This document shows, piece by piece, positions 28,976 through 64,000 of a stretch of 64,000 nt of DNA. The position numbers and the translations under genes are program-made. The notes under the pieces were generated by a model. That model was not told the DNA's origin. It was given only the letters and a program-made list of their open reading frames with translations, and ran no database searches. Source of the stretch: Acidimicrobiia bacterium (GTDB lineage Bacteria > Actinomycetota > Acidimicrobiia > Spongiisociales > ZC4RG35); the NCBI GenBank assembly GCA_040510135.1, contig JBEVJN010000077.1:249-64248 (forward strand), written 5' to 3'. The first letter of the stretch is position 1, and each line of letters begins with the position of its first letter.

Positions 28976-29386
28976 ATGAGAACCGAAGTGCCTGGAGGCG
29001 GCCAGACTGCTCGTCCTCCGCATCTGCGCACCGTGGGGCCTCCGGGCGCTTCGGTCCGGCCGACGGCGAGGGTCCGGCCGGTGGTCCCGGTCCGGCTGGA
29101 GCCTCGTCGCGGTGGGTTCGAGCCCTCGGACCCCTACGTGCGGCGGTTCTGGGTGGCCGCAATCGGCTCGAGTGCCGTTGCCGAGCTGCTCCGCCTGGTT
29201 CGGGCGGCCGAGAAGGGGGAGGGGGTGCGGCTGCCCAGAACCCTCCCGACCTTGCTTCGAGTCGGCCTCGTCAAGGCCGAGACATCAGGGCTCGTGGTGT
29301 TCGATCACATCCCTGTGGTGCCAGTGGAGATGCGTTGGAGATTCCCACCTAGCCTCGGGGCCGAGCATTCGAGATGGGTGACTTGA
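28976..29386 (+). CDS. Hypothetical protein (Arg/Pro-rich N-terminus; conserved-looking core DPYVRRFWVAAIGSSAVAELLRLV)
   Basis: Reasonable GC3 and an upstream promoter-like element. No recognised family. The 3' end overlaps the convergent wzx-like gene. Confidence 0.3.
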   Translation: MRTEVPGGGQTARPPHLRTVGPPGASVRPTARVRPVVPVRLEPRRGGFEPSDPYVRRFWVAAIGSSAVAELLRLVRAAEKGEGVRLPRTLPTLLRVGLVKAETSGLVVFDHIPVVPVEMRWRFPPSLGAEHSRWVT

Positions 29387-38035: not shown

Positions 38036-38554
38036 GTGCCGAAGCCGGATCATCCAAGGGCGTGGCGCCAGCGCCTCGGCACGGTATATACCCGATACCT
38101 CCCCGCTGCACTTGGCCTGACCGCCGTCGTCAATCTTGCCCTAACGCCATTTCTGCCCGGGTCGGCCGCCCCGATACGAACTCATCGGGACGGGTCACTG
38201 ACCGAGCTGGTTCACACCGAGCAACGAGCCGTGGATCGGCGATTCGGGTTCTATATGGAGCTCGACGACGCCACCAACGGCGGGACCTTGATCGTCCCGA
38301 TGGGATCGTTCGTCAACGCCGAGCTGGCCGAAGGCTTTGCCAGCTTCGACGTCGTCGAGTTGGACTACGACCCGGCAGCGGGGGCGACCGGTGTGCCCGA
38401 GGTCCCTGAACAATGGCTGGTCGAGACCGAGTCGGGTGATCTCGTCTTTTCGATCATCCCCGGGAACGACGACCTGTGGTGGCTCGCCGAGCGACCCAAC
38501 GGCGATGTCGTGGTCGTCCCTGATTCTGTCGCGCCGGCCCCGGTGTCACCGTGA
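38036..38554 (+). CDS. Hypothetical membrane-anchored protein
   Basis: One N-terminal TM (YLPAALGLTAVVNLALTPFL) and an acidic C-terminal domain. No family recognised. Confidence 0.35.
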   Translation: MPKPDHPRAWRQRLGTVYTRYLPAALGLTAVVNLALTPFLPGSAAPIRTHRDGSLTELVHTEQRAVDRRFGFYMELDDATNGGTLIVPMGSFVNAELAEGFASFDVVELDYDPAAGATGVPEVPEQWLVETESGDLVFSIIPGNDDLWWLAERPNGDVVVVPDSVAPAPVSP

Positions 38555-45119: not shown

Positions 45120-45163
45120 CTAACGTGAATCGGCCAGTCCTCGGCCACCCTGTAGGGAATCGG

Positions 45164-46858: not shown

Positions 46859-46906
46859 CGAGCGGGCACCAAGGTACCCGTTCCCACTTCCTAACCAATC
46901 AGGTCT

Positions 46907-48684: not shown

Positions 48685-50439
48685 ATGCATGTCTGCCTCG
48701 TCGCTCGAAATCGGTTCCACAACGACCGCCATGCCCTTTCACTGCACCGCGCTCTGAGCGCGGCAGGACACAGGGTGTCCGTGGTAGCAGTCGAGAATCG
48801 ACCGGCCGCCGGGTTGGTCGACACAACCGTTCCCAACAACGTGCCGGTCGGCCTCGGTCCGATCGGGTCGGCTCTACGCAGGGCTCGCCCGAAGTCTCGG
48901 CGAGAGGCCGGAATCATCCGTCGGCTGTCGGACGCGGCTGCGGCGACCGGTGCCACAACTTTCGTGCCAACCCACTCCAGCGCCGTCGCCGCGGCTGTGG
49001 CCGCCGCCCGGGTCAACCAGGGCACAGTGCTCCGGCAACCTCAAATGGAGTGCCCGCCCGACGTCGATTTGATCGCGATCGCCCCGACCCGGCCCGACCT
49101 GGCGGCTCCGGTGTTGGGGTTCGGCTCGTTCCAGACACCGGACGATCGTCGCGCGCCGTATTCCCCGGTTCCCGACCGTCACCAAGGTCGAAGAGTGATC
49201 ATCTGTTACCGGAAGACCGACTCCAATCCGGGCAAGTACCTCGAGTCGGCTCTCCGGAGAAGCGGGGCTGACGTCCAGCTGGAAAAGGTGGGCATCGACC
49301 TGGACAGCGTCGATGCCGGAACTGACCTGATCGTCTTCGTGGAAGGCCCATACCCGGCGCTCGAAGTGACGGGCGCGACCGAAGTTCCCACCCTCTTCTG
49401 GGCGCACCACGGGGAGCACCACCTCCACACCAATCTGCGGCTGGCCAACCGATACCGGGCGGACGGAGTCCTCCTCGCCCACTCCTGGCACCTGGCTCCG
49501 TGGTTCCCTGCCCCCATTTATCGCTTTCCGTTCGGTGTGGCGACCGAGGTGCTCGATCCCAGTCTTCGATTGAAGGACCGACCCTTCGATGTGGCCTTGG
49601 TCGGAGCCAAACTCTGGGAGGGTGGCCCCTATGGCAGGCGACAGGAGATCGTGCGGGACCTGGAGGCGTCGTTCCCGGCGCATCGACTCGCCTTCGGCGA
49701 GAAGGTCACCGCCGACGTGATGGCCGACATGTATGCCAGGGCTCGGATCGTCGTGAACGAGGGCGGCACCAGGCACTTCCCCATCACGATGCGAGTCCTC
49801 GAGGCTGTAGGCAGCGGGGCGGTGCTCCTCTCTGATCATCTCCCCGGCATGGAGATGATGTTGGAGCCAGAGGCCGAATACGCCGTGCTGAGCCCGGACG
49901 TCGTCAAAGACGTCAGGGAGCTCCTCTCCGACCCGGGGGCAATGCAGGACATGGCCGACCGGGCTTTGACCCGGTCGCTGGGTATCAACACTTATGACCA
50001 TCGGGTAGACGAGCTGTTCCAGATCGCAGCGGAGGTCGAGAAGCGGGATATCCCGGCTATCCCCGAACTGGAGCCAATGGCGGAGCTGATCCGGCGCGAC
50101 GCCGAGGTCCAGAAAGTGGTCGAGTTCGGGGCGCCCGAGCTGGTTGGGGCGCTACCCGATCGTGAGATCTGGGGAGCCACCGAGATCAGCCGGCACCGCC
50201 TGCGCCCTCGCAATCTCGAGGCGGCGGCGGTTCGTCAGGGTGGAGACCCGGACCTCATGGAAAAAGTGCTGGCGAGCGCCAGGCGATACATCTACGTCGA
50301 CGGGCCCTTCGACGGGCTGGACGAATTCGTCGAAGCCCAGCATCCGAACGCCGTCGTGTCTCAGCATGGCAGCGCTCGCCGGTACGACCTGATGGCGGAG
50401 GCATATCGCATCATGCCCCATGAGGTCGTCACCGAGTGA
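48685..50439 (+). CDS. CgeB-like glycosyltransferase (DUF3880 + GT1-like C-terminal domain) with an N-terminal extension
   Basis: The C-terminal half (RIVVNEGGTRHFPITMRVLEAVGSGAVLLSD...) resembles the spore-maturation CgeB GT family. The assignment is tentative. Confidence 0.45.
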   Translation: MHVCLVARNRFHNDRHALSLHRALSAAGHRVSVVAVENRPAAGLVDTTVPNNVPVGLGPIGSALRRARPKSRREAGIIRRLSDAAAATGATTFVPTHSSAVAAAVAAARVNQGTVLRQPQMECPPDVDLIAIAPTRPDLAAPVLGFGSFQTPDDRRAPYSPVPDRHQGRRVIICYRKTDSNPGKYLESALRRSGADVQLEKVGIDLDSVDAGTDLIVFVEGPYPALEVTGATEVPTLFWAHHGEHHLHTNLRLANRYRADGVLLAHSWHLAPWFPAPIYRFPFGVATEVLDPSLRLKDRPFDVALVGAKLWEGGPYGRRQEIVRDLEASFPAHRLAFGEKVTADVMADMYARARIVVNEGGTRHFPITMRVLEAVGSGAVLLSDHLPGMEMMLEPEAEYAVLSPDVVKDVRELLSDPGAMQDMADRALTRSLGINTYDHRVDELFQIAAEVEKRDIPAIPELEPMAELIRRDAEVQKVVEFGAPELVGALPDREIWGATEISRHRLRPRNLEAAAVRQGGDPDLMEKVLASARRYIYVDGPFDGLDEFVEAQHPNAVVSQHGSARRYDLMAEAYRIMPHEVVTE

Positions 50440-52934
50440 CAGAGGGAGTGCAACCGCACAACGTCAACGAGGTTGCTCCCGATCCGACCGGGGCATCCGA
50501 CCTTCGAGTGGCCGTAGTCATCCCCGCCTACAACCGACCGGCGCTCCTTGCTCGGACTCTCACCTCACTGGCGGACCAGACCGACACGTCGGTGTTCGAA
50601 GTTCATGTCGGCGACGACGGGTCAAAGGAGGATATTCGTGGCGTCGTCGAGTCCGTCGAGGGGCTGGACGCCCATTACCACTTTCAATCGCACGACGGTT
50701 TCGGGGCGGGCCGGGCCCGCAATATGGGCGCAGCTCACGCCAACGCCGACGTGCTCCTCTTGCTCGACTCAGACTGCATCGTCCCCCCTGATTTCGTCGA
50801 ACGGCACCGGGCTTGGCACGGGTCGTCCTCGCTGTCGGTGGTGATCGGGGGCCGATCCAACCCCCCCGACCAGACCTCAGGGGAGGCGGAGCACTACCGG
50901 AGCAGATTGCTCCGCAGGTCGGCCGGTCTCCAACACGGCGGCGAGGCGTTTCGGGCGTTCGTCTCCTCGAACGTCTCCATCCGCCTGCCCTTCTTCCGTG
51001 AGCTGGGGGGATTCGATGAGCGTTTTCGCTGGTGGGGAAGCGAGGACACAGAATTGGGCTGGCGGGCCTGGCAGGCCGGCGCCTCTTTCGTGTTCGACCC
51101 AACGCTCGAGATCGAGCACCAACTGGATCAGGACTCGGCCGGTGGACCCGCGGGCAGAAAAGAAGCGCGGAGACTCAACTCCGGACTGATGACGAGTCTC
51201 GTGCCGCACCATTTCTATCGGAAGCAGCCTCCGCCCACGATCCCGGAGAACCCAAAGCTCTCAATTGTCCTGTACGACGTCCCGATCGGTGCCCTGGAAC
51301 CCACTTGGAAATTGTTGGTCGCCCAGCCGCGGACAGACTTCGAGCTGGTCGTGGTCGCCAATCCCGACGATCACGATCCTTTCGCAGGAGCAACCATCGG
51401 CGACCAGCGCATCCGGTTCAGCACCTCGGTCGAAGAAGCGACGTCGTCGTCCGCCAGTGAATACATCTGCTACTTGAACGGCCATGGAGCACCCTCCGAT
51501 GCGCTGTTTCCGGAGATGATCAAGCGGCTCGACCAGCGCCCGGAGTACGTGTCAGCGACGACCGGGTACGCGCTGCCGGCCGATCAGGGTGGGGCCGTGC
51601 GGACCCAGAACGGGGCGGCCACGGTCGACATGGGATGGCAGTCGGACATGCCGCTCTGTTGGTTCATACGGAAACGAGAGACCGCGAAGCTGATGCGGCA
51701 AGGCGCAGGAATCGCGGAGATCTGGCGAACCGCCAAAGAATGGGACCTGAATCGGCATTGGCCATCAGCAGCAGTTCGGCTACCCGGGCTCGAAAGAGCA
51801 GAGCGCCCGGCTGACTTCACCAACGTCTCACCCGACCCGCGTCGGCTGGCCAAGGACCTGGTCAAGAATCCCCGTGACGCGGTGGCCACAACCGCGAGAT
51901 TCGTCGCCGCCAGACGAAACGGGACTACATACGCACCGGTGCCCCAGGCCGCCCGATCCACCACCGTAAGCCCCGAACGCCCTCAGGCCCGCTACGTCGG
52001 ATGGACAGGTAGGTTCAACCTCGGTGACGACATCATGGTCGACTGTGTGCGGGAGCTTCTCGACTGGGCGGACATAGTCGAGTCTGGTGACCCACAGGAT
52101 CTGATCATCCTCGGCGGCGGAACGTTGATCAACCGGCGCACCTACCTGCGCTGGGTATCCGAGCGTGACTCACCCCGCATCGAGCGGGCGACACTGGGGA
52201 CGGGAGTTGCCAGCCCTGACTTCTGGGGTCTGACCGAGGACCCCAAACGGTGGGTTCGCTGGTTGTCGAGTTGCGCCTACGTCGGTGTCCGCGGCCCCCA
52301 ATCCGCGGAAACACTGAGGTCGTGGGGCTACAGGGGCGAGATTGAGGTCTGTGGTGACTCGGCGCTTCTCGTCACCCCGGGCCCCGAGGTCGAACGGAAA
52401 GCCGGTCGAGTGGTCGTCGCTCCGGCTTGGACCAAAGGCGAGCTCTGGGGTGGCTCCGACAGCGATGTAATCGAAGCCCTGGCCGGTGCGATCGAGCGAT
52501 GGAAGCACGACGGCAGAGAGGTGGTGTGCCTTGCCTCCAGCCCCGAGGACGATGGCCAGATTCTCCAGCTGAGCAGGGCGACCGGGGGTGAAGTGCTTCC
52601 ATACCTAGCCGGATATGTGGACAATCAGGCAGCGATCGACCTGATCGGCTCCGCCGAGGTTGTCGTCGGCGAGCGGCTCCACGCTTGCATCCTGGCGGCC
52701 GCGGTGTCGACGCCATTCATCGGCATCGAGTACCGCCCCAAACTGAAGGATTTCGCCGAGTCGGTGGATCGCGGAGATCTCGTGGTCCGCACCGACACCC
52801 TGTCCGGTGAGTCGATCGTCGAACTCGCGGCCGAAGCGACGAGCCGCGGCACGGAAGCGGCCGACTTGCGCGTTGCCGTCTATCGCGATCGCCTGCGGCA
52901 GGCATCGGCCTCCCTGCAGAAGGCCTTGCGCTGA
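50436..52934 (+). CDS. Tri-domain fusion: GT2 + GT2 + polysaccharide pyruvyl transferase (CsaB/WcaK/EpsO family, PF04230-like)
   Basis: Domain 1 VAVVIPAYNRPALLARTL...DSDC (GT2). Domain 2 LSIVLYDVPIGALEPTWK... (second GT-A). The C-terminal ~330 aa reads YVGWTGRFNLGDDIMV...ILGGGTLIN...YVGVRGPQSAETL...CGDSALLV...VVGERLHACILAAAVSTPFIGIEYRPK. This is the G..G.FN.GD / ILGGG / VRG..S pyruvyltransferase pattern. Confidence 0.65.
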   Translation: MTEGVQPHNVNEVAPDPTGASDLRVAVVIPAYNRPALLARTLTSLADQTDTSVFEVHVGDDGSKEDIRGVVESVEGLDAHYHFQSHDGFGAGRARNMGAAHANADVLLLLDSDCIVPPDFVERHRAWHGSSSLSVVIGGRSNPPDQTSGEAEHYRSRLLRRSAGLQHGGEAFRAFVSSNVSIRLPFFRELGGFDERFRWWGSEDTELGWRAWQAGASFVFDPTLEIEHQLDQDSAGGPAGRKEARRLNSGLMTSLVPHHFYRKQPPPTIPENPKLSIVLYDVPIGALEPTWKLLVAQPRTDFELVVVANPDDHDPFAGATIGDQRIRFSTSVEEATSSSASEYICYLNGHGAPSDALFPEMIKRLDQRPEYVSATTGYALPADQGGAVRTQNGAATVDMGWQSDMPLCWFIRKRETAKLMRQGAGIAEIWRTAKEWDLNRHWPSAAVRLPGLERAERPADFTNVSPDPRRLAKDLVKNPRDAVATTARFVAARRNGTTYAPVPQAARSTTVSPERPQARYVGWTGRFNLGDDIMVDCVRELLDWADIVESGDPQDLIILGGGTLINRRTYLRWVSERDSPRIERATLGTGVASPDFWGLTEDPKRWVRWLSSCAYVGVRGPQSAETLRSWGYRGEIEVCGDSALLVTPGPEVERKAGRVVVAPAWTKGELWGGSDSDVIEALAGAIERWKHDGREVVCLASSPEDDGQILQLSRATGGEVLPYLAGYVDNQAAIDLIGSAEVVVGERLHACILAAAVSTPFIGIEYRPKLKDFAESVDRGDLVVRTDTLSGESIVELAAEATSRGTEAADLRVAVYRDRLRQASASLQKALR

Positions 52935-54362: not shown

Positions 54363-55457
54363 CTACGGCATGGCCCGGACAAAGAAGGTGGCCATCTGTG
54401 ACCGCTTCAGCGGCATGTCCGGACAGAAGTTGGTATTGGCGGGTGGATTGCACCCCATTGTGACGCCATGGGCGGCGAGGGCATTGATCGAGTCTTCGAA
54501 CCGGTTGCCCTCATCGTCGACGAAGTAGTTAGTGGCTGTCGGGTTGTCGTAGCCGAAAGCCCGAACCAGCAACTCCGCCATCTCGTGGCGAAGGAGCGAA
54601 ACACTGGGACAGAACTCGGTCTTCGTGCAACCGAACCCGATTCCAGCCGCCTCGATCGCACGGATCGCCGGCTCGAACTTGTTGCCGGCGACGTCGGTAT
54701 ACGGGATATCCCCGCCCTCGGGCAAATCGAGAGCGCGAGCGATGAATGCTGCCATCTGCCCGCGCGTAATCTGATCTTCGGGGCAGAACATGTTGTTGAG
54801 CGGCGGGTTGCATCCGAGTGTGATCCCGCGTTGCGCGATGATCTCGATGTTTTTCTCGTGGACGTTGCCGTCGTCATCGCGGAAACGCCCATCCCAGCCA
54901 CCAGCCGCGTTGACCAGGTACGGGTAGGCATCGATCGCTGTCCCGTTCTTGCGCAATTCGAAATGCAGGTGTGGGACCGTCTCCGCCGCATTCCCGGAGT
55001 CACCGGCCCAGCCGATGACCTGACCACGCTTGACCGCGACGCCTTCGACGAGGCCCGCGGCAATCCCCCATCCCTCGCCGTCGGTGTTGTCGATGTAGTT
55101 CCCGGCGGCGTCCTTCTTGTCGTCATTCAGATGGATGTAGCGCGTGACCCATCCGCCGCCATGGTCGATACCCACATAGCAACAGTCCGAAGGCCCCGAG
55201 CTGATCCAGCTGATGGTGCCGTCGGCTACGGCGAGGACTGGCACACCTTTGGCCGTCATGATGTCGACGCCCTCGTGGGTCCTGGAGCACCCAGATCCTC
55301 GGCAATCGCCGAAACTGTCGGTCAGCCGATACTCCCCGTCGAGGGGGAAGGTCATGGCACTTGGATCAAAGGGTGCTGCAAGAGCGGGCGCGGTCGTAGG
55401 CAGCAAAGACCCGAAGGCCAACACGAGCCCCGCTAACAAACGCGTCGAAAACTTCAC
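54363..55457 (-). CDS. Secreted M23-family peptidoglycan endopeptidase with three C-terminal SLH-like repeats (GTG start)
   Basis: Signal peptide, M23 motifs (HEGVDI...HLHFE), then 3 SLH-like repeats (GITLGCNPPLNNMFCPEDQITRGQMAAFIARAL...). Confidence 0.85.
   Translation of the reverse strand: MKFSTRLLAGLVLAFGSLLPTTAPALAAPFDPSAMTFPLDGEYRLTDSFGDCRGSGCSRTHEGVDIMTAKGVPVLAVADGTISWISSGPSDCCYVGIDHGGGWVTRYIHLNDDKKDAAGNYIDNTDGEGWGIAAGLVEGVAVKRGQVIGWAGDSGNAAETVPHLHFELRKNGTAIDAYPYLVNAAGGWDGRFRDDDGNVHEKNIEIIAQRGITLGCNPPLNNMFCPEDQITRGQMAAFIARALDLPEGGDIPYTDVAGNKFEPAIRAIEAAGIGFGCTKTEFCPSVSLLRHEMAELLVRAFGYDNPTATNYFVDDEGNRFEDSINALAAHGVTMGCNPPANTNFCPDMPLKRSQMATFFVRAMP
54366..54905 (-). repeat. Three tandem SLH-like Cys-variant repeats at the C-terminus of the M23 peptidase
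   Basis: Same consensus as in the other four proteins. Confidence 0.7.
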
Positions 55458-55705
55458 GCCGAACCGGTATCGGCGCTCCTACCCGGACTCTTGAATCTTC
55501 GGAAGACGGACCTCCCATCGCGCTCTTTGCCAATATCGCCAACGGCGCGTACGGGTAGACCCATGCCTTCCTCCTCTGTAGAGCCGGCGGCGACGGTACC
55601 CCGTGTGCCCCCGATTCAAACATCGGACTCTGACCGACCTAGGGCGTTGGAGCTTCAGTACGCTCGTCCAACCGGTCAACTCGGCCGAGAGTCAGGGGGA
55701 TAGTC

Positions 55706-56428
55706 TTGAGAAAGTCCACCATTCTCGCTGTGGTCGTCGCCGTCCTGATGGCTGTGCCGCTCACGCTGTACGCGTCACATCAATTTCAGGACGTCCCTGA
55801 CTCTCACACGTTCCATACCGCGATCGACTTCATGGCTGCCAACGGGATCACTCAAGGGTGCAACCCGCCGGCCAACACCAACTACTGCCCCGAAGATCCA
55901 GTCACGCGGAGTCAGATGGCCGGCTTCTTGAAGCGTTTCCATGACACCTTTATCGCCGGCAGTGGAACCGGGCTTGGTGCTGCCGTTCGTCCCCAGAGTG
56001 CACCCCCTGATCCTGGCAATGGTGTCGTCGATGACCTGACTTTGAATCTCCACGTTCCGCAGGCGGGCGTCCTCGTGGTCACAGGGAGCCTGCAAATGGC
56101 GAACTTCTCGGAATTGGATGCGTTCTCTTGTGGCATCAACTTCGGCTCCGCACCCAGCACCGCTAAGAGCGATTCCTGGCGTGATATCGACCTGACGGCT
56201 AGTTTCCTCGCCTCATGCGATACGATCACCGCTATCGAGGTGGGGCCAGGAACTCAACCTGTTCGGCTTGTGATTTCGGGCGCAGCACCAACCACTGAGG
56301 CTCTGCAAGGTGGTATGACGGCGGTCCTGTACACGTTCGGAGGGTCTTTTGGCCTCCTCGGCACAGCCACCGATGCCACCGAGGCACGGTCTTTGAGCGA
56401 CATCCCGAAGAGCGCCGCCGCCGGATAG
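55706..56428 (+). CDS. Secreted protein with a single N-terminal SLH-like repeat and a C-terminal domain of unknown function
   Basis: Signal/TM (ILAVVVAVLMAVPLTLYA), then FQDVPDSHTFHTAIDFMAANGITQGCNPPANTNYCPEDPVTRSQMAGFLKRF (one SLH-like copy), then an ~150-aa Gly/Ala/Thr-rich domain. Confidence 0.6.
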   Translation: MRKSTILAVVVAVLMAVPLTLYASHQFQDVPDSHTFHTAIDFMAANGITQGCNPPANTNYCPEDPVTRSQMAGFLKRFHDTFIAGSGTGLGAAVRPQSAPPDPGNGVVDDLTLNLHVPQAGVLVVTGSLQMANFSELDAFSCGINFGSAPSTAKSDSWRDIDLTASFLASCDTITAIEVGPGTQPVRLVISGAAPTTEALQGGMTAVLYTFGGSFGLLGTATDATEARSLSDIPKSAAAG

Positions 56429-56459
56429 CCGGACACCCACAACTCTCGTCGATCCGGCT

Positions 56460-56478
56460 GGCCGGTAGCTTGCCGGCC
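56460..56478 (+). terminator. Perfect GC hairpin GGCCGG-TAGCTTG-CCGGCC between the SLH-protein gene and the downstream methyltransferase (no U-tract)
   Basis: 6-bp GC stem with a 7-nt loop, 32 nt after the stop at 56428. Actinobacterial terminators often lack U-tails. Confidence 0.3.
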
Positions 56479-56509
56479 CTCCCGGGTCCACAATCCGGAG
56501 GGTCACGCC

Positions 56510-57082
56510 TTGACAAACAACGGACATCGCCGTGTTGCGATCTTCAGCCGGTTGCTGGCGCTCTTTTCTCCCGGACGCCTCATCGATCTCGGGGCGGGCC
56601 ACGGCAAGTTCTCAATGGTTGCAGCCAAGGCAGGTTGGGAGGTCATGGCGGTTGACGCCCGTACGGAGCGCAACACCGCTGCACCTGGCGTGACCTGGGT
56701 CGAGGGTGATGTGCGCGACGTCGACCTTGAAGGCTACGACCTGGTGGCGTGTCTCGGGCTCTTCTATCACCTCACGGCCGAGGACCAGCTCGATCTCCTG
56801 GCCAGATGCAAGGGAGTTCCATTGATCATCGACACCCACCTCGCCAATGGGCTGTCCACCCACCCATTAGGCGAGGAAGTCGAGCTCCAGGGGTACACGG
56901 GGCGTGTCTATCACGAAGGGACGGGCCTGCTCTCGTCGTGGGGGAATCAGCAGTCTTTCTGGCCGACACCGGAATCGTTTCACCAAATGCTGGATCAGGC
57001 CGGTTACAACTTCGTGCTCGCCGTAGAGCCCTGGTACCTGCCAGATCGCACCTTCTTCCTCGCTCTGTCGAAATCGTCCTAG
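56510..57082 (+). CDS. Class I SAM-dependent methyltransferase
   Basis: LIDLGAGHGKFSMVAA (motif I) and DLVACLGLFYHL (motif II/III). Confidence 0.7.
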   Translation: MTNNGHRRVAIFSRLLALFSPGRLIDLGAGHGKFSMVAAKAGWEVMAVDARTERNTAAPGVTWVEGDVRDVDLEGYDLVACLGLFYHLTAEDQLDLLARCKGVPLIIDTHLANGLSTHPLGEEVELQGYTGRVYHEGTGLLSSWGNQQSFWPTPESFHQMLDQAGYNFVLAVEPWYLPDRTFFLALSKSS

Positions 57083-57894
57083 ACGCCGGACTCGGCGCCG
57101 TAGCCGAATTCCCTCAAGAGGCCGGACAGCTCGACTTCGATCTTGGAGACCTGTGATTCATCGAGTCGACCCTCCCACGCCTCTCGATGGATGCTGCCCG
57201 GTCTTCCCATCGGAGCACTGACCGGAGTCCTCTTGTCGGCTTCAGCTCTCAAGAAGGCATCAACTTCCGGATGGTTTTCCAAGCCGAGGAAGGTGAATAT
57301 TCCCTGCACAGTCGAGTGTCCATCTTCGACGAGACTCTCGAAGTGGATCTCGTGGTAGCGGTCCTCTCCTACGATCATTCCGAAGCTGTGAGCGTGTGTC
57401 ACGAAGGCACGCCATGCTTCGATCGCCTCATCGAAGCCGAGCCACCCCTTCGACAGGATGGATGCAACGACCGCCCGGGGATCACGAATGATGTGGACAT
57501 ATTGGCCCTCTGGAAAGAGTCGGTCCATCGTCGCCAGAGCCTCGGAATCCTGGTCGCCGTCGGCGTACTGGGGATACTTGTCTCCCCATCGCTGACCCGG
57601 TCGAGCCCCAAGATCGCGGTATATCTGCTCGACCACGCGCGGGACCTGTTGCCACAGGCTCTCGATGACCTCGTCACGCGAAGTGGCGAGGAGACGACGC
57701 GTCCCAACCCAACGATTGAGCATCCGGCTGAACAAGAGCATGAGGCGGGTCTCATTGGTCAGGAAGATCTCGGGGTGATGGTCGAGGACCCGCGCCAGGA
57801 AGGTCGTTCCCGACCGAGGGGCCCCGATGACCCAGAACGGTGGGGCCATCGGCGTCTCGACCGGAGGTTCTTGCTTGGGGGGTCGACGCAACAT
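57079..57894 (-). CDS. Sulfotransferase-family protein (PAPS-dependent)
   Basis: 5'-PSB P-loop FWVIGAPRSGTTFL and 3'-PB HIIRDPRAV. The start was set at the internal Met (MLRRPP) of the track ORF 57079..58053. Confidence 0.7.
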   Translation of the reverse strand: MLRRPPKQEPPVETPMAPPFWVIGAPRSGTTFLARVLDHHPEIFLTNETRLMLLFSRMLNRWVGTRRLLATSRDEVIESLWQQVPRVVEQIYRDLGARPGQRWGDKYPQYADGDQDSEALATMDRLFPEGQYVHIIRDPRAVVASILSKGWLGFDEAIEAWRAFVTHAHSFGMIVGEDRYHEIHFESLVEDGHSTVQGIFTFLGLENHPEVDAFLRAEADKRTPVSAPMGRPGSIHREAWEGRLDESQVSKIEVELSGLLREFGYGAESGV

Positions 57895-57908
57895 GTCGGC
57901 GGGATCCT

Positions 57909-58616
57909 CTAGTCCAGCATCCACTCGTATTCGGTGCCAGACAACAACGCGGCGATCTCGTGGTAGTTCGACACCATCGATTCGAGTCTGTCTGCCCCGG
58001 TTCGGTCCAGGCCGGGTCGCACCTCCTCCGGGTTGATGCCGATGAAATCGCACACGGACGCGTAGGCCTTGACCGGATCGACCGCAACGTCGTCCTCATA
58101 GGTGAGATGAAGGGCGGCCCGGTCGGAGAGAGCCGACTTCAGATCCGCCTCCCCTTGCTTCATCTCCTCGAAGACCGCGAGCAGCGGCTGTCGTGGCCCG
58201 AATGGCACAGCATTCAGATCGACCCGGACACTTGTGTCCGGCATGGTCTCGTCCGAGGTCCGGTGCCAACGTCGCCTCTCGCGGCCGATCACACCCGACA
58301 CAACGCGTCGCAGGTAGTTGTGTCGGTGCAGTGTCACGTAGTGGTTGACGCCGACCGAGTCGGTGAGATCGAGAAGACCGGCCAGGTCGAGACCGAGGAT
58401 CCGCGGGTGGTGCGATGGGAGGTACTTGATCTCGAACCCATAGATCTCAGGAGTGTCACCGATCCGGTTGATGAGGAACTCTCGGGGCGGAACCTCCTCG
58501 AACCCGATCTTTGACCGGACCTTGTCCTCGAACACCTCACCATCCCAGGAGATTGCCGGGTGCCGGCCGAGCATCTCTGCCACGACCGTGCTGCCACAAC
58601 GGCCGACATGGAGCAT
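57909..58616 (-). CDS. Stf0-like sulfotransferase (start uncertain: 58616, 58697 or 58718)
   Basis: P-loop-like AMLHVGRCGSTVVAEML near the N-terminus. The size (~235-269 aa) and layout match the Stf0 family. The assignment is tentative. Confidence 0.45.
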   Translation of the reverse strand: MLHVGRCGSTVVAEMLGRHPAISWDGEVFEDKVRSKIGFEEVPPREFLINRIGDTPEIYGFEIKYLPSHHPRILGLDLAGLLDLTDSVGVNHYVTLHRHNYLRRVVSGVIGRERRRWHRTSDETMPDTSVRVDLNAVPFGPRQPLLAVFEEMKQGEADLKSALSDRAALHLTYEDDVAVDPVKAYASVCDFIGINPEEVRPGLDRTGADRLESMVSNYHEIAALLSGTEYEWMLD

Positions 58617-58711
58617 CGCGACTGTCGTTCGGGGGGCCAGCACAGAGAGACTGTAAGAGAAGTGCGCCCGTTGGACACAACCGCGAAAAGGCCTCATTAC
58701 ATTCGACGGCA

Positions 58712-60391
58712 ATGGCATTGGCTTCGCCGACGGAAGTGGGTGAGCCAGGCTCCGTCGAGGGATCTGGGAGCGGAGCTGGTTGGCACTGGGTGGTGCTGGC
58801 CCTCATCTTTGCCATCGCACTAGGGGCACGTCTCTGGAGCATCGACCATGGCCTCCCGGCGGTCTTCAATCCCGACGAGGCGTCCCATTTCGTCCCTCGG
58901 GCTGTCCGATTCCATCTGACAGGCGGGTTCGATCCTGGCTACTTCTTGAACCCTCCTCTGATCACCTACGTGTTCTACCTCGCGTTCGCCGTTTGGTTCG
59001 GCGGCAGCGACGGTGTGGCCGCCATCGCGGCGTCCGATCCAGCCACGCCTTATCTGGTGGGTCGTGTCGTCATTGCCGCCGTAGGGGCCGTTGGGGCCAT
59101 CGTCGTGTATCTGGTGGGACGGGTCCTGATCGATCGTCGTGCCGGCCTCGTGGCCGCGTTGTTAATGGCTGTCTCATTCCTCCCGGTCCATTGGTCACAT
59201 TTCGCCACCAACGACGTGGCAGCCATGGTGGCCGGCACCGTCTCGCTGCTGGGGTCTGTGCTCGTCCTCAAGAAACATCACCTTGGTGGCTATGCCCTTG
59301 CCGGCGTCGGCCTGGGGCTGGCAAGCGGGACCAAATACACCGCTGGCATCGTGATCCTGCCTCTCCTTGCCGCGGCCGTGATCCACTGGCGCTCCGAGCA
59401 TTGGCGGGCGGTGCTCGGACTTCTCATCGCCGGCGCATCTTCGATCGCCGCCTTCCTGCTGGCGGTTCCCACACTGATGACAGACACCCAGTCCGTTCTC
59501 GATGACCTGGTCCGATTCGATCCCTCGGGAGGCACGGCACCGAAGATCGGCCAGGCACAGGAGAACGGTCACCTCTACTACGGGTGGGTGCTCACCTGGG
59601 GGCTGGGGTGGTTGGCATGCGCCTTGGCAGTCGTTGGTGCGATCTGGTCGCTGATTCGGGACCGGAAGGTGGCCGCCATCCTGCTTCCGGCGCCCGTTGC
59701 CTATATCGCCTTCATGGGCGGGCAGGCGGCATTCTTCGGGAGATGGCTGCTTCCGGTCTTCCCGTTCGTGATTCTCCTCGCCGCCCTCGGAGTGGTTCGC
59801 CTGACCGCCGCGATTACCGAGCGTCTGGACTGGTCACCGACTCCGTTGCTGGTCGTGGCCACGGTTCTCGTGTGTCTCCAGTCCGTGATCCACGTGGTGC
59901 GGATGAACGACCTTCTTAGCCGCACCGACACCAGAGCCGAGGCGGTGCAATGGATGCGGGACAACCTCCCCGCCGGCAGCCGTTTCATCAACTCCGGTGT
60001 GCTGGTGCGGCCGATGATCGACGAGGACCCGAGCACTCGTGCGGTCGAGAGCAGATGGGAGGTGACCTCGCTGAACGGCAACCAGTCCACGGTCGGGGCC
60101 CGTCCCAGCATGCTCGACCAGTACGAGAAGGAAGGCTGGTGCTGGGTGTCTGCGTCGAGTCTCTTCTATGACCGGTTGTTCGCCGACGAGCACCTCCGCC
60201 CCGCGGGCGCCGCCTACTACCGGGAGCTGGAGGAGCGTGGGGAGGTCGTGTTCCGTGCCACGCCATATCGGTCTGGGGCCGCACCCGTCCCCTTCAACTT
60301 CGATTGGGCGACGAATCTCTACCCCTTCGAGTTCGAGCAGCCTGGAGGAGAGGTGACCATCTACCGCTTGCATGGAGGTGCCTGCGCCTAG
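58712..60391 (+). CDS. GT-C glycosyltransferase of the PMT_2/ArnT (GT39/GT83-like) family, polyprenol-P-sugar dependent
   Basis: WHWVVLALIFAIALGARLW...FNPDEASH... is the typical ArnT/PMT N-terminus with a periplasmic DE motif, then ~11 TM helices and a C-terminal soluble domain. The start was set at MALASPTEV (Met68 of the track ORF). Confidence 0.7.
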   Translation: MALASPTEVGEPGSVEGSGSGAGWHWVVLALIFAIALGARLWSIDHGLPAVFNPDEASHFVPRAVRFHLTGGFDPGYFLNPPLITYVFYLAFAVWFGGSDGVAAIAASDPATPYLVGRVVIAAVGAVGAIVVYLVGRVLIDRRAGLVAALLMAVSFLPVHWSHFATNDVAAMVAGTVSLLGSVLVLKKHHLGGYALAGVGLGLASGTKYTAGIVILPLLAAAVIHWRSEHWRAVLGLLIAGASSIAAFLLAVPTLMTDTQSVLDDLVRFDPSGGTAPKIGQAQENGHLYYGWVLTWGLGWLACALAVVGAIWSLIRDRKVAAILLPAPVAYIAFMGGQAAFFGRWLLPVFPFVILLAALGVVRLTAAITERLDWSPTPLLVVATVLVCLQSVIHVVRMNDLLSRTDTRAEAVQWMRDNLPAGSRFINSGVLVRPMIDEDPSTRAVESRWEVTSLNGNQSTVGARPSMLDQYEKEGWCWVSASSLFYDRLFADEHLRPAGAAYYRELEERGEVVFRATPYRSGAAPVPFNFDWATNLYPFEFEQPGGEVTIYRLHGGACA

Positions 60392-60404
60392 CCTCGCGTA
60401 GCTC

Positions 60405-61262
60405 GTGAAGACTCCCAATCTCTCCGTGGTCGTTCTCGCATGGAACAAGCTGGAGTTGACCCGGCATTGTGTCGACTCGATTCGGTCAGGAACACGTGAT
60501 GACTACGAGCTGATCCTGGTCGACAACGGCTCGACGGATGGGGGCGCCGATTTTGCATCCGCCGCGGCCGACAAGGCGGTGATCAACGCGGAGAATCTCG
60601 GTTTTGCCGCCGGGAACAACTCAGGGCTCGCAGTTGCCATCGGTACCCACGTGGCGTTCGTCAACAACGACACCGTCTTGCCGGCGGGATGGGATGTGTC
60701 GCTCACCGGGATCCTCGACGCCGAGCCGCACACCGGGATGGTCCTACCCGCCGTGACCGCTGCAGGCAACCCGGTGACGGTCAGAACCGAGCCCGGGGAG
60801 ATCGTCGAGGTCTTGCTCCCCTTTGGCGAGTTTCCCAGCGGTGTCGTTGTGGTGATGAGGAGATCTCAGATCGAGGGGTTGGGTGGCTGGAACGAGGAGT
60901 ATGAGCGAGCCAGTGGGGAGGATCTCGACCTGGCCTTCACGGTCTGGGCCCACGGCCTCGACGTGGTAGTCGACACCAGGGTCCTCGTGGAGCATGCGTC
61001 TCAGGCCAGCATGAAGGAGGTCCCCGGGCTGACCGCCCTCTACCGGAACAACCTCGAACGATTCCTCGACCGCTGGGACACAGGGCCCGACGGGCCGATG
61101 CTGGACACGATCGACCGCACGGACTATCTCCGAAACCTGGACCGAGCCAGGACAGCGGTGACATGGATTCGGCGGATGATGGCGGCCCGCGACGAGGCGA
61201 TGGCACTGAGGAGAGCGGTCGATGAGCCCTCGACCAGGCCCTGGTTCAGATCCAGGTCCTGA
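60405..61262 (+). CDS. GT2 glycosyltransferase
   Basis: LSVVVLAWNKLELTRHCVDSI...LILVDNGSTDG...FVNNDTV is the GT-A fold with the DxD motif. Confidence 0.8.
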   Translation: MKTPNLSVVVLAWNKLELTRHCVDSIRSGTRDDYELILVDNGSTDGGADFASAAADKAVINAENLGFAAGNNSGLAVAIGTHVAFVNNDTVLPAGWDVSLTGILDAEPHTGMVLPAVTAAGNPVTVRTEPGEIVEVLLPFGEFPSGVVVVMRRSQIEGLGGWNEEYERASGEDLDLAFTVWAHGLDVVVDTRVLVEHASQASMKEVPGLTALYRNNLERFLDRWDTGPDGPMLDTIDRTDYLRNLDRARTAVTWIRRMMAARDEAMALRRAVDEPSTRPWFRSRS

Positions 61263-62085
61263 GCTCGGTCACCAGCTCCCCAATCGACTCGCGCCAGTGG
61301 GGTAGCGGCTCGAGTCCGATGCCCTCGAGCCGCTCCGAGGCGAGTACGGAGTACGCCGGCCGGCGGGCCGGAGTCGGGTAATCCTGCGTCTCACAAGGCG
61401 AGAGCCTGGAGACGTCGAGGTCGGCGAGCCCGACGCTGGTTCTGGCCAGCTCGTACCAGGTGGTCTCTCCCTGGTTGGTGAGATGAAGCAGCCCGGACGC
61501 CCCGGAACGCAAAGCGGCGTAGCTGACCCGAGCCAGATCGGCCGCCACGGTCGGATTGCCCCGTTGGTCGTCCACCACCCGCAGATCATGTTCCCTGACC
61601 CTCCGCAGGATGGTGGCGACGAAGTTGGGGTGACTCCCCGAGATCACCCATGAAGTTCGCACGACGAGAGTCCCCTGATCAACGGCTAAGGACTCGCCCA
61701 GCAGCTTGGAGCGTCCGTAGGCGTTGATCGGGCTGGTCGGGGAGGACTCGACATATGGCCGGTCAGCGAGCCCGTCGAAGACATAATCGGTCGAGAATGT
61801 GAGCATTGGCCGCGAGCGGTGCGCAGCCCACTCGGCAAGGACTCCCACCGCCACCGTGTTGATTGTTGTGGCCAGCCCTTCTTCTTCCTCGGCTCGATCG
61901 ACCGCCGTGTAGGCGGCACAGTTGATCACTACTGAGGGGTCGAGCGCATCCAGAGTGGGGGCGATGTCGTCGAGACGGGTCAGATCGAGGTCAGCGTGTG
62001 AGAGCCCGTTCGCGTCGTCGCCGAGGAGACGGGTGAAGGCGGTGCCCAGTTGGCCGCCCCCACCGAGGACGGCTATGCCTCTGAT
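61246..62085 (-). CDS. rmlD: dTDP-4-dehydrorhamnose reductase. The N-terminal Rossmann motif lies upstream of the first ATG (61929) and no canonical start codon is visible upstream.
   Basis: Track ORF 61246..61929 starts at MINCAAYTAVD, which is the middle of RmlD. In-frame upstream translation gives ...RGIAVLGGGGQLGTAFTRLLGDDANGLSHADLDLTRLDDIAPTLDALDPSV. This is the RmlD N-terminal NAD(P)-binding loop. There is no ATG/GTG/TTG before the in-frame stop at 62134-62136. Confidence 0.75.
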   Translation of the reverse strand: MRGIAVLGGGGQLGTAFTRLLGDDANGLSHADLDLTRLDDIAPTLDALDPSVVINCAAYTAVDRAEEEEGLATTINTVAVGVLAEWAAHRSRPMLTFSTDYVFDGLADRPYVESSPTSPINAYGRSKLLGESLAVDQGTLVVRTSWVISGSHPNFVATILRRVREHDLRVVDDQRGNPTVAADLARVSYAALRSGASGLLHLTNQGETTWYELARTSVGLADLDVSRLSPCETQDYPTPARRPAYSVLASERLEGIGLEPLPHWRESIGELVTELRTWI

Positions 62086-62948
62086 CGATGCTCCTCGACA
62101 ACTCGGGCCACATACTCGCGGTATGTGGAGTTAGGCATCGCAGACAGGGTGGCTTCCATTTCCTCCAAGGTCACCAGGCCCTTTTCCAGGGCGATCTCCT
62201 CCAGACAGGCGATCTTGAGGCCCTGCCGGTGCTCGATGGTGGCGATGAAGTTGGCCGCTTCGAGCAGAGAATCGTGGGTGCCGCTGTCCAGCCATGCGAT
62301 CCCACGTCCCAACCGGATAGCCCGAAGGGTCCCCTCTTCCATGTAAGCGCGGTTGAGATCGGTGATCTCCAGTTCGCCCCGTGCTGACGGATTGAGCTTC
62401 TTGGTCATCTCCACGACCCTCCCGTCGTAGAGGTAGAAGCCGGGCACTGCCAGGTTCGACTTGGGCTGGGCCGGCTTCTCCTCGAGCGAAAGTACCTTGC
62501 CGTCATCGGCGAGTTCGACGACGCCGTATCGGACCGGGTCGGAAACCGGGTATCCGAAGACGAGGGCACCGATGGCAAATCCTTCCACGATTTCAGCCAG
62601 GCCGAGCGCACCATGAAAGATGTTGTCACCGAGGATGAGGGCCACGGGGTCGGTGCCCACGAATGCTTCGCCCACGAGGAAGGCCTGGGCGATGCCACCG
62701 GGATGCTCTTGGACGACATACTCGATCGACAGCCCCCAGAGTGCGCCATCGCCGAGCAAATCTCTGAAACGCGGGGTGTCGTGTGGTGTGGAGATGAGGA
62801 GTATCTCCGAGATGCCGGCCTCCATCAGCGTGGCCAGCGGGTAATAGACCATCGGCTTGTCGTAGACCGGCTGCAATTGCTTGCTGGCGACCCTGGTCAT
62901 CGGGTCGAGCCTGGTGCCGGCCCCCCCGGCGAGGACGATGCCCTTCAC
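62073..62948 (-). CDS. rmlA: Glucose-1-phosphate thymidylyltransferase
   Basis: KGIVLAGGAGTRLDPMTRVASKQLQPVYDKPMVYYPL... is the canonical RmlA. The start is taken as GTG at 62948, giving (M)KGIVLAGG and overlapping the rmlB stop as GTGA. Alternative ATG at 62978. Confidence 0.9.
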   Translation of the reverse strand: MKGIVLAGGAGTRLDPMTRVASKQLQPVYDKPMVYYPLATLMEAGISEILLISTPHDTPRFRDLLGDGALWGLSIEYVVQEHPGGIAQAFLVGEAFVGTDPVALILGDNIFHGALGLAEIVEGFAIGALVFGYPVSDPVRYGVVELADDGKVLSLEEKPAQPKSNLAVPGFYLYDGRVVEMTKKLNPSARGELEITDLNRAYMEEGTLRAIRLGRGIAWLDSGTHDSLLEAANFIATIEHRQGLKIACLEEIALEKGLVTLEEMEATLSAMPNSTYREYVARVVEEHRSEA

Positions 62949-63916
62949 GGAGTTGCCTTCTTCAAAGGCCGCCACCATTCCTCGCGGCTCCGGTACCAAT
63001 CGACTGTGTCACTCAGACGCTCGTCGAATGGGTGTGCCGGCGCCCAGCCGAGGGCACGAATCTTGGAGGAATCCACGGCATACCTGAGGTCATGTCCTTT
63101 TCGGTCCTCCACGTATTCGATCGACGATTCGTCTTTGCCCATGATCTCGAGCATGCGCCGCGTGAGATCGAGGTTGGTCATCTGCGCATTGGCCCCGATG
63201 TTGTAGATCTCACCCGTTGTGCCGGCGTCGACAAGCGTGTGAAGGGCCGAGCAATGATCCTCGACATAGAGCCAGTCCCGCTCGTTGGATCCGGTCCCAT
63301 AGAGGGGCACCTTGCGCTCGTCGATGAGGTTCGTGACAAAGAGGGGGATGACCTTCTCCGGGAACTGATAAGGCCCGTAGTTGTTGGTGCATCTGGTGAC
63401 GATCACCGGGTAATCGAAGGTGACCCGATATGAGAGAGCGATCAGATCGCTGCCAGCCTTGGACGCGGAGTAGGGGGACGATGGGTCCAGCAGAGCAGTC
63501 TCCGGGGCGAACCCCTCGGCCACCGACCCGTACACCTCGTCGGTGGACACGTGGATGAACCTGGGAACCCGGTTCCGAGCAGCGGCGTCTAGAACCACAC
63601 CGGTTCCCACCACATTCGTATCCAGAAACACCGACGGGCCGGTGATCGACCGATCCACGTGGCTCTCGGCGGCAAAGTGCACCAACACGTCGACGTCTCG
63701 GGCGAGACTGTTCACGAGATCAGCATCACGAATGTCACCGAGCACGAAGTTGTGCCCCGGGTATCGATCCAACTCGTCGACAGTCGTCTTCACCCCCGCA
63801 TAGGTGAGGAGGTCCAAGTTGGTCACCAAGGCGTCGGGTTCGTTCTCCAACACGTAGCGAACGAAATTCGACCCGATGAAGCCGGCTCCGCCGGTCACGA
63901 GGTACTTGCGTGGCAC
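62945..63916 (-). CDS. rmlB: dTDP-glucose 4,6-dehydratase
   Basis: YLVTGGAGFIGSNFV Rossmann loop and catalytic YSASKAGSD. Full-length 323 aa. Confidence 0.95.
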   Translation of the reverse strand: MPRKYLVTGGAGFIGSNFVRYVLENEPDALVTNLDLLTYAGVKTTVDELDRYPGHNFVLGDIRDADLVNSLARDVDVLVHFAAESHVDRSITGPSVFLDTNVVGTGVVLDAAARNRVPRFIHVSTDEVYGSVAEGFAPETALLDPSSPYSASKAGSDLIALSYRVTFDYPVIVTRCTNNYGPYQFPEKVIPLFVTNLIDERKVPLYGTGSNERDWLYVEDHCSALHTLVDAGTTGEIYNIGANAQMTNLDLTRRMLEIMGKDESSIEYVEDRKGHDLRYAVDSSKIRALGWAPAHPFDERLSDTVDWYRSREEWWRPLKKATP

Positions 63917-64000
63917 CCGCTCAACCTATGCGAAGACTTACGGGTCGCGCAAGTGCGGAGCCTCAGAGCTCGTGCGACGGGGAGTCCTGTAGCTGATCAA

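Follow-up and report, generated by a model that had tools for sequence, protein, structure and literature searches.

What do sulfotransferase genes make beside a dTDP-rhamnose operon in an actinobacterium? The question is raised by eight genes at positions 56510-63916 of a 64,000-nucleotide stretch of DNA from an Acidimicrobiia bacterium (contig JBEVJN010000077.1, assembly GCA_040510135.1), hereafter called the window. An original prediction held that two adjacent sulfotransferases, a methyltransferase, two glycosyltransferases and the rhamnose genes rmlB, rmlA and rmlD produce a sulfated and possibly O-methylated, rhamnose-containing envelope glycoconjugate. Each of the eight genes was confirmed at its predicted coordinates or close to them. 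With moderate confidence, the locus is proposed to build a sulfated rhamnose-containing wall polysaccharide that would be sulfated in the cytoplasm on a lipid carrier and optionally decorated outside by a GT-C glycosyltransferase. The core of the prediction, sulfation together with rhamnose, was if anything understated, as rmlC and two more sulfotransferase domains lie past the window end; the methyltransferase and the GT-C enzyme turned out to be accessory.

The rml operon and its sulfotransferases

The genes were annotated with Pfam and NCBIfam scans, which covered essentially all credible window genes. The right-hand end was followed on a Logan contig, L007, which encodes the exact RmlB protein. 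Its final 1163 nt match window positions 62838-64000 with 100% identity, and it provides a 9.9 kb extension past window base 64000. The features of the module are listed below with their bit scores (MT, methyltransferase; ST, sulfotransferase; SAM, S-adenosylmethionine; PAPS, 3'-phosphoadenosine 5'-phosphosulfate).

56510-57082, forward strand: MT, a class-I SAM-dependent methyltransferase, 190 aa (Methyltransf_23 34.2 bits and Methyltransf_25 33.1 bits, above cut-off)
57079-57894, reverse strand: ST1, a PAPS-type sulfotransferase of the Sulfotransfer_3 family, 271 aa (PF13469 96.1 bits, PF00685 35.5 bits)
57909-58616, reverse strand: ST2, a divergent protein of probable sulfotransferase fold, 235 aa (other possible starts reach as far as 58718)
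58617-58711: divergent intergenic region of 95 bp separating the ST2-ST1 and GT-C-GT2 operons
58712-60391, forward strand: GT-C glycosyltransferase, PMT_2/PMT (ArnT/PMT-like), 559 aa (PMT_2 53.9 bits, PMT 47.2 bits)
60405-61262, forward strand: soluble GT2 glycosyltransferase, 285 aa (Glycos_transf_2 60.8 bits)
61246-62085, reverse strand: rmlD, dTDP-4-dehydrorhamnose reductase (TIGR01214 258 bits, cut-off 224)
62073-62948, reverse strand: rmlA, glucose-1-phosphate thymidylyltransferase (TIGR01207 405 bits, cut-off 361)
62945-63916, reverse strand: rmlB, dTDP-glucose 4,6-dehydratase (TIGR01181 425 bits, cut-off 365)
L007 8255-9901, forward strand of L007: TOD1/MUCI70-ST3 fusion, 548 aa, about 100 nt past the window end (TOD1_MUCI70 81.5 bits, Sulfotransfer_3 92.6 bits)

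The three rml assignments all exceed their NCBIfam equivalog cut-offs. No rmlC was found within the 64 kb window; it lies 1.7 kb past the window end on L007, and RmlABCD are thus all four present. Upstream of rmlB and in the same direction, L007 carries the TOD1/MUCI70-Sulfotransfer_3 fusion and rmlC (242 bits), from which the operon reads rmlC, TOD1-ST3, rmlB, rmlA, rmlD. The position of TOD1-ST3 inside this operon ties rhamnose to sulfation more directly than any other observation. Its TOD1/MUCI70 domain (DUF616, GT116) is like the galacturonic acid transferases of plant pectin rhamnogalacturonan I. A fourth sulfotransferase, ST4 (Sulfotransfer_3 78.4 bits), stands on the opposite strand beside rmlC and the fusion, followed farther along L007 by two soluble proteins without known function and then by large glycosyltransferase fusions. 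Pairwise identity among the four sulfotransferase domains is at most 24%, so ST1 to ST4 are distinct enzymes rather than recent duplicates. None of the sulfotransferases, ST1 and ST2 included, showed a transmembrane (TM) or signal segment in a TM scan, and the same scan places MT in the cytoplasm.

Several details of the rml genes were also recorded. The fusion between rmlC and rmlB recurs at L002 1176-2870 and at L009 420-2066. In L002 (GCA_025937575.1), a 721-aa Sulfatase-family (PF00884) protein at positions 1-590 adjoins rmlC; it could be a true polymer-remodelling sulfatase or a phosphoglycerol transferase of the LtaS/GacH type. rmlA probably starts with the GTG at 62948, which overlaps the stop codon of rmlB in the sequence GTGA; the gene is called as 291 aa in L001. 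For rmlD, no ATG, GTG or TTG precedes the Rossmann motif VLGGGGQLG (region 61929-62085), and gene callers therefore truncate the protein to 227 aa, with loss of the cofactor-binding site. Tblastn nevertheless shows the N-terminus of the full-length 276-aa form to be conserved. An ATC in frame at 62085 is kept in all eight relatives compared and an ATA (62076), in an 'ATAG' overlap with the rmlA stop (62073-62075), in seven of them. The gene may therefore use a non-canonical start codon, or its translation may be re-initiated in coupling with termination at rmlA.

Judged from its sequence, ST1 is a cytoplasmic PAPS-dependent sulfotransferase. Its Sulfotransfer_3 score of 96.1 bits stands against a gathering threshold of 27 bits, which confirms by hidden Markov model what had been predicted for it. 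The classic 5'-phosphosulfate-binding and 3'-phosphate-binding motifs attributed to it were likewise borne out by an alignment to 8w5z, in which GAPRSGTT and IIRDPRAVVAS align with residues of tyrosylprotein sulfotransferase (TPST), and the Glu of NETR was aligned to the catalytic Glu of TPST. The best matches in the PDB were TPST1/2 and the olefin-synthase sulfotransferase 4gox (E ~1e-11); the match to the NoeE model was weak (36 bits). An assignment of ST1 specifically as a TPST was considered and rejected: TPSTs score about 45 bits (E ~1e-11), the polyketide sulfotransferase 4gox scores equally, and the genomic context is that of a glycan. Because TPST and 4gox score alike, these matches show a common fold and not a common acceptor. 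Homologues of ST1 that are 43-44% identical were found in a cultured Isoptericola sp. (L010, GCA_042668085.1) and on one metagenome contig. Both are surrounded by an ABC2/ABC-transporter pair, a UDP-GlcNAc 2-epimerase, a DUF6270-sulfotransferase fusion and glycosyltransferases, with an LCP gene nearby, and all four rml genes are also present in the Isoptericola cluster. The same cluster encodes a 767-aa fusion of PAPS_reduct with an NAD-dependent epimerase/dehydratase (L010 16767-19070), which may link sulfur-nucleotide and sugar-nucleotide metabolism.

ST2, which precedes ST1 in a shared operon at a distance of 14 nt, is more divergent. Taken alone, the protein scores 22.7-23.2 bits against Sulfotransfer_3, under the threshold of 27 and over the P-loop only, and it has no NCBIfam match. 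It had been described as Stf0-like, a label that does not hold: the Stf0 model PF09037 gave no match to ST2 and matched only one of the 37 ST2-family members. The pairing of two adjacent sulfotransferases was thus clear for ST1 and failed for ST2 by a single-protein model; family profile, motifs, structural model and domain fusions supported it. In an alignment of 37 homologous sequences (A1), 33 matched PF13469 (E<0.01), and the motifs HxGRCGST, RxNxLRRxxS and YED were invariant or nearly so; R98, N100, S107, Y173 and E174 are invariant and GRCGST nearly invariant. These residues are, as predicted from the alignment, the expected 5'-phosphosulfate and 3'-phosphate binding elements, together with the YED motif of NodH/olefin-synthase-type enzymes. 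Searched against the PDB, the family profile returned only sulfotransferases: 4gox (8.7e-4), NodH 9vki (2.8e-3, weak), CurM, SULT1A1 and TPST2. An AlphaFold2 model of ST2 reached a predicted local distance difference test (pLDDT) score of 93.9, and the top three Foldseek matches (3rnl, 4gox and SULT7A1) were all sulfotransferases. The family is large, with at least 659 clusters (50% identity) at E<=1e-30 and 4057 at E<=1e-10 in an exhaustive profile search.

Domains of the ST2 type were found fused to GT2, Wzt (ABC_tran+Wzt_C), FkbM methyltransferase and a second Sulfotransfer_3 (P0280, P0250, P0272, P0293, P0235 and P0236), and also to TPR repeats. The Wzt partner is the ATPase of an ATP-binding cassette (ABC) transporter with the glycan-cap-binding domain Wzt_C, and this fusion may couple sulfation to chain termination or export in some systems. 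An ST2 homologue with 40% identity stands among three Sulfotransfer_1 genes, a GT4 and a GT2. From the family profile, the PAPS-binding motifs, the AlphaFold model and the fusions, ST2 would still be a divergent glycan sulfotransferase. The fusions of its family and the sulfotransferase and glycosyltransferase neighbours of its homologue, along with the wall-polysaccharide clusters around the ST1 homologues, point to a glycan as the probable acceptor.

A reading in which no sulfation takes place was also weighed. The organism might be without PAPS, or ST2 and the others might be proteins of the sulfotransferase fold, which is common to nucleoside kinases, that use another nucleotide or transfer another group. 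PAPS-synthesis genes were not found in the 74 kb of window and extension, ST2 is sub-threshold for every curated model, and nucleoside and adenylate kinases are among its fold matches. However, ST1, ST3 and ST4 score 78-96 bits against Sulfotransfer_3, and both PAPS phosphate-binding motifs are kept across the 37 ST2 homologues. Actinobacterial PAPS genes are, moreover, usually not clustered with sulfotransferases. This explanation is regarded as highly improbable.

Conservation and divergence of the module

Conservation was examined with a panel of 20 proteins by tblastn against all fetched loci and with gene tables; a single-protein locus scan, which reaches close relatives only, found five loci. 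At least seven related Acidimicrobiia contigs (L001/L017, L002/L019, L003, L013, L015, L016 and L018) share the gene order, at 56-94% protein identity. In all of these except L013, the order begins with a gene for an S8 protease with SLH repeats, followed by GT1_2, a GT2-pyruvyltransferase fusion, a GT28_C-like gene, an M23 peptidase and, where present, a small SLH-like gene with MT; it continues with ST1, ST2, GT-C, GT2, rmlD-A-B, TOD1-ST3 and rmlC. L013 is more distant (ST1 60% identical). It is without MT and GT-C and keeps rmlCBAD, the 285-aa GT2, two ST2-like genes and ST1; an ABC-transporter ATPase is also encoded there. From this pattern of retention and loss, the conserved core is rml, GT2, ST2 and ST1, with MT and GT-C as accessory genes. 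The kept gene order indicates that the adjacency of the module genes is more than chance. The ST2 protein has a 100% identical counterpart, annotated as hypothetical, in an Acidimicrobiia metagenome-assembled genome, and the close relatives are all metagenome-assembled genomes of Acidimicrobiia type. Three of the relatives, L015, L016 and L017, come from Microflora Danica with 89-94% ST2 identity and carry 'uncultured Acidobacteriota' titles; these labels are probably mistaken, as the other carriers and the actinobacterial synteny of the window indicate Acidimicrobiia.

These comparisons bear on the possibility that the genes are independent neighbours, with rmlBAD and GT2 forming a housekeeping linkage unit (Rha-GlcNAc, WbbL-like) and the sulfotransferases acting on a lipid, a metabolite or a peptide tyrosine. 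The left part of the window is indeed a conserved actinobacterial region of secA, sahH, a phosphoglucose isomerase (PGI)-like gene, pmm, cofD-cofE, LCP and acyl-CoA carboxylase genes (Pfam, NCBIfam), and the window is syntenic with the conserved secA-sahH-manA-pmm-cofD/E-LCP region, which in mycobacteria also holds rmlD and wbbL. The nearest solved relatives of ST1, tyrosylprotein and polyketide sulfotransferases, would also suit such a reading. It is nevertheless improbable, given a sulfotransferase domain fused to a glycosyltransferase-like domain within the rml operon, an ST2 family fused to GT2 and Wzt domains, and an rml-GT2-ST2-ST1 adjacency that persists down to 54-62% identity. Family scans of the window also showed no pks, pap, mmpL or RiPP-type genes nearby.

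The methyltransferase assignment stood as that of a generic class-I SAM-dependent enzyme, and its proposed part in the glycan did not fare as well. MT and ST1 are convergent, with 3' ends that overlap by 4 nt, so MT is not in the sulfotransferase operon. Being accessory, convergent with ST1 and absent from L002, L003 and L013, MT has a weak link to the glycan. MT and the small SLH-like gene beside it appear to be gained or lost jointly, as both are missing in L002/L019, L003 and L013.

Between the window and L001, the flanking genes (rmlBAD, GT-C, M23-SLH, GT1_2 and GT28_C) are 95-98% identical, and the modification genes are less so: ST1 85%, ST2 88%, MT 80%, SLH-like 69% and TOD1-ST3 50%. 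The last value, found although the adjoining rml genes are 97-98% identical, looks like allelic replacement. Positions 55706-58616, compared with L001/L017, bear what may be the signature of a hot spot of surface-glycan diversification, and the fast divergence of the ST, MT and SLH-like genes points to a surface structure that differs from strain to strain.

The surrounding glycan island and the proposed assembly

The G+C content of the window is 61-67%. From about 29 kb to the window end extends a large envelope-glycan island, of which the sulfotransferase and rml region is the right-hand end. In this setting, the region described above probably forms the part of a large conserved Acidimicrobiia wall-glycan locus that is concerned with precursors and modification. 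Besides GT2 and GT4 enzymes, two nucleotide-sugar dehydrogenases and several unannotated multi-TM proteins, the island and the region to its left encode the following.

5973-6719: a second GT2 resembling ArnC, AglJ and dolichyl-phosphate-hexose synthases
17140-18411: LCP enzyme, candidate peptidoglycan ligase
30608-31891: polyprenyl glycosylphosphotransferase (initiating phosphoglycosyl transferase), in the island
34160-35080, forward strand: GT2 resembling polyprenyl-phosphate-hexose synthases, with a single TM helix at its C-terminus (residues 271-289)
35077-35832: a second methyltransferase, in the island
50436-52934, forward strand: GT2 fused to a CsaB-like polysaccharide pyruvyltransferase (Glycos_transf_2 99 bits, PS_pyruv_trans 81.8 bits)
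54363-55457, reverse strand: secreted M23 peptidase with SLH repeats (Peptidase_M23 71 bits, SLH 32.7 bits)
55706-56428, forward strand: small secreted SLH-like protein, 240 aa, with an N-terminal hydrophobic segment (residues 5-23) and a weak SLH match of 17 bits

The ArnT/PMT-type assignment of the GT-C enzyme was upheld. Its PMT_2 and PMT scores exceed the Pfam thresholds (26.1 and 22.7 bits), and it is polytopic, with at least nine TM helices, a first extracytoplasmic loop that bears the acidic motif NPDE (residues 52-55), and about 150 C-terminal residues that form a soluble domain. A phmmer search of the PDB gave no relative at the sequence level. The true start of the gene is 58712, as called in all relatives, and not 58511, which leaves the 95-bp divergent intergenic region facing ST2. 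This region presumably holds promoters for both directions; a sigma-70 consensus scan of it gave nothing, with a consensus that is uninformative for this phylum, and a promoter and terminator consensus scan of 55400-64000 did no better than on shuffled sequence.

The GT2 that follows GT-C, also as predicted by family, always stands beside and convergent with rmlD, where it is retained in L013 without GT-C. It was considered as a polyprenyl-phosphate-sugar synthase and rejected for that role, as it is without the C-terminal TM helices of GtrB/ArnC (a single weak central hydrophobic segment, residues 133-151, scores 1.74), reaches 14.9 bits against ArnC and stays with rmlD where GT-C is missing. 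We infer a nucleotide-sugar transferase tied to rhamnose and treat it as a candidate rhamnose-related transferase. Better candidates for the synthase of a GT-C donor, to go by sequence comparison, are the GT2s at 34160-35080 and 5973-6719. The former matches AglJ (104.6 bits), dolichyl-phosphate hexose transferase (79 bits) and ArnC (70 bits) in NCBIfam, all under the cut-offs.

Four island proteins, SpoIID-like, GSDH (glucose/sorbosone dehydrogenase)-like, S8 protease and M23 peptidase, carry SLH repeats above the Pfam cut-off, and the small SLH-like protein is a weak fifth. The genes for SLH enzymes (43290-48661 and 54363-56428) are interleaved with that for the GT2-CsaB-like fusion (50436-52934). 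The fusion protein scores 85.9 bits against the CsaB equivalog model (cut-off 213), and by tblastn its gene is syntenic in all relatives within the same conserved block as the sulfotransferase and rml genes. The M23-SLH gene is a conserved neighbour of ST1, which it directly adjoins in L002, L003 and L013. Together, the SLH proteins and the CsaB-like fusion point to a possible display system of SLH proteins on a pyruvylated polymer in Acidimicrobiia.

The presence of these proteins is relevant to whether the glycan might be attached to protein. A sulfated rhamnose oligosaccharide could be built on a lipid carrier and transferred by the PMT-like GT-C to SLH-anchored or S-layer proteins, in the manner of sulfated haloarchaeal S-layer glycans or actinobacterial Pmt O-mannosylation. 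The GT-C matches PMT and PMT_2 and, weakly, the archaeal Agl23 and STT3 models (NCBIfam); AglJ, an enzyme of an S-layer glycoprotein pathway, gives the best match to the GT2 at 34160-35080; and at least five secreted SLH-domain proteins are interleaved with glycan genes. Such a protein glycan nonetheless seems unlikely. L013 has no GT-C and yet keeps rml, GT2, ST2 and ST1; the LCP ligase, the CsaB-like pyruvyltransferase and the initiating phosphoglycosyl transferase indicate a wall polymer; the Isoptericola ST1 homologue lies within an LCP and ABC-transporter wall-polysaccharide cluster; and Pfam detected no PMT_4TMC domain in the GT-C.

A sulfated rhamnose-containing wall polysaccharide is therefore the reading retained. 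Sulfated-polysaccharide clusters hold sulfotransferase genes within a polysaccharide locus (PMC11641403), and here four sulfotransferase domains stand among glycosyltransferase, rml, LCP and phosphoglycosyl-transferase genes. In the proposed assembly, dTDP-L-rhamnose would be incorporated into a polyprenyl-linked glycan at the cytoplasmic face of the membrane, with GT2 and the TOD1-like domain as the putative transferases. The sulfotransferases would then transfer sulfate from PAPS to several positions or residues on the lipid-linked intermediate, ahead of its export. PAPS and SAM are cytoplasmic, and the sulfotransferases and MT are without TM or signal segments, so from established biochemistry modification should precede export. 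After export, the GT-C, where present, would add a side sugar from a polyprenyl-phosphate-sugar donor made by an ArnC/AglJ-like GT2 elsewhere in the window (34160-35080 or 5973-6719), and the LCP enzyme (17140-18411) would attach the polymer to peptidoglycan. Sulfate would serve as an anionic substituent of the wall polymer. The wall ligand or environment of the island SLH proteins is likely to be this polymer or else a sister polymer that the CsaB-like enzyme pyruvylates. As a subsidiary idea, one of the sulfations could be a chain-terminating export signal of an ABC-transporter pathway, which is conceivable because ST2-like domains are found fused to Wzt with Wzt_C.

Three large polytopic membrane proteins are predicted at 38551-39993 (forward strand, about 15 TM helices), 29349-30611 (reverse strand, about 10) and 6675-9011 (reverse strand, about 12). 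They have no Pfam or NCBIfam match and are candidates, from topology, for a flippase, polymerase or ligase of unrecognised families.

Several points weigh against the proposed wall polysaccharide. We know of no chemistry for any Acidimicrobiia wall polymer, and the sequences reveal no acceptor specificity, position or stoichiometry. The closest solved relatives of ST1 sulfate protein tyrosine or a polyketide, not sugars. The score of ST2 is under the Pfam threshold, and its model has a TM-score of 0.54 to the best sulfotransferase, with nucleoside kinases of the same fold close behind in Foldseek. The export route lacks assigned genes: no ABC transporter is encoded in the window, and neither of the multi-TM proteins at 38551-39993 and 29349-30611 matches a family. 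Finally, neither the 64 kb window nor its 9.9 kb extension yielded cysD, cysN, cysC, ATP sulfurylase, APS (adenosine 5'-phosphosulfate) kinase or PAPS-reductase-family genes; the joint presence of PAPS genes and sulfotransferases has been proposed as a hallmark of sulfated-polysaccharide clusters (PMC11641403).

A bolder version of the proposal is that the wall polyanion of Acidimicrobiia is charged by sulfate and not by phosphate. A multiply sulfated 'ulvan-like' polymer of rhamnose and uronic acid would then replace teichoic acids, with a bifunctional TOD1/MUCI70 glycosyltransferase-sulfotransferase, SLH anchoring and strain-variable sulfation. We regard this as speculative and unlikely as a whole. 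A sulfated wall polymer, if real, would bear on wall charge, on phage and predator recognition and on a phosphorus-sparing design of the envelope, and it would provide new polysaccharide sulfotransferases for biotechnology. Isoptericola sp. NPDC057391, with its ST1 homologue in an rml, ABC and LCP cluster, offers a cultured handle.

Comparison with known systems

The streptococcal and lactococcal Gac/Rgp polysaccharides are assembled in the cytoplasm on a lipid carrier by rml products and GT2 rhamnosyltransferases. Outside the cell, a GT-C adds side chains from a polyprenyl-phosphate-sugar made by an ArnC-like GT2, and LCP enzymes ligate the polymer to peptidoglycan. The assembly proposed for the present locus follows the same scheme; the Gac/Rgp systems differ in belonging to Firmicutes, in having no sulfotransferases and in bearing glycerol phosphate, added through GacH, and not sulfate. 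The proposed scheme also resembles the assembly of mycobacterial arabinogalactan. NodH, NoeE, LpsS and mycobacterial Stf0 act on Nod factor, lipopolysaccharide and trehalose. They have in common with ST1 and ST2 the PAPS-dependent sulfation of sugars by soluble P-loop sulfotransferases, as predicted here, but ST1 and ST2 score far under the equivalog cut-offs and the genomic contexts differ.

Animals, algae, cyanobacteria and a few marine proteobacteria are well-documented sources of sulfated polysaccharides. In Actinomycetota such polymers have so far only been predicted (PMC13390465), and the locus carries this prediction to abundant, uncultured Acidimicrobiia of soils and sediments. Its design is unusually rich in sulfotransferases: of the four divergent domains, the one within the rml operon is joined to a glycosyltransferase-like domain. 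The locus also ties a large ST2 family, barely detected by Pfam, to glycan synthesis through domain fusions. Literature searches turned up no account of sulfotransferases from Acidimicrobiia or of sulfated SLH-binding or secondary cell wall polymers, and nothing relevant on bacterial TOD1/MUCI70 (GT116).

The wps-1 cluster of Actinoplanes missouriensis, for which a sulfated polysaccharide was predicted in 2026 from genes without chemical proof, is likewise an actinomycete polysaccharide cluster with two sulfotransferases of different families and a SAM methyltransferase (PMC13390465). It differs in being a Wzx/Wzy system that makes exopolysaccharide for the sporangium matrix, and it also encodes a GH26 enzyme along with a protein kinase (PMC13390465). 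By description, the present locus is set apart from it by four sulfotransferase domains, an rml operon with a glycosyltransferase-sulfotransferase fusion, the GT-C and the SLH and pyruvyltransferase context. A sulfated rhamnose-containing polymer has been chemically proven for the capsule of Vibrio sp. KMM 8419, where a sulfotransferase gene likewise stands beside the dTDP-rhamnose operon and several sulfotransferases are spread across a large glycan locus (PMC11641403). That system is a Gram-negative capsule with Kps-type ABC export, and its cluster includes an additional copy of cysDNC (PMC11641403); it has neither a GT-C nor an SLH context, and cysDNC was not seen in the window or extension here. 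In the synechan (xss) system of Synechocystis, dedicated cytoplasmic sulfotransferases also modify the polymer, during Wzx/Wzy-type assembly, but this is a cyanobacterial exopolysaccharide with other sulfotransferase families and regulation, no rml operon fusion and no GT-C (PMC8205485). The CsaB system of SLH proteins similarly has several SLH proteins beside a polysaccharide pyruvyltransferase and wall-glycan genes (PMC6030368, PMC6801904), whereas the pyruvyltransferase here is fused to GT2 and falls under the CsaB equivalog cut-off. The locus thus represents the same kind of system as known clusters and is new in its lineage, in the number of its sulfotransferases, in the glycosyltransferase-sulfotransferase fusion inside rml and in its SLH and pyruvyltransferase context; the enzyme families are ordinary, and the combination and the host are moderately novel.

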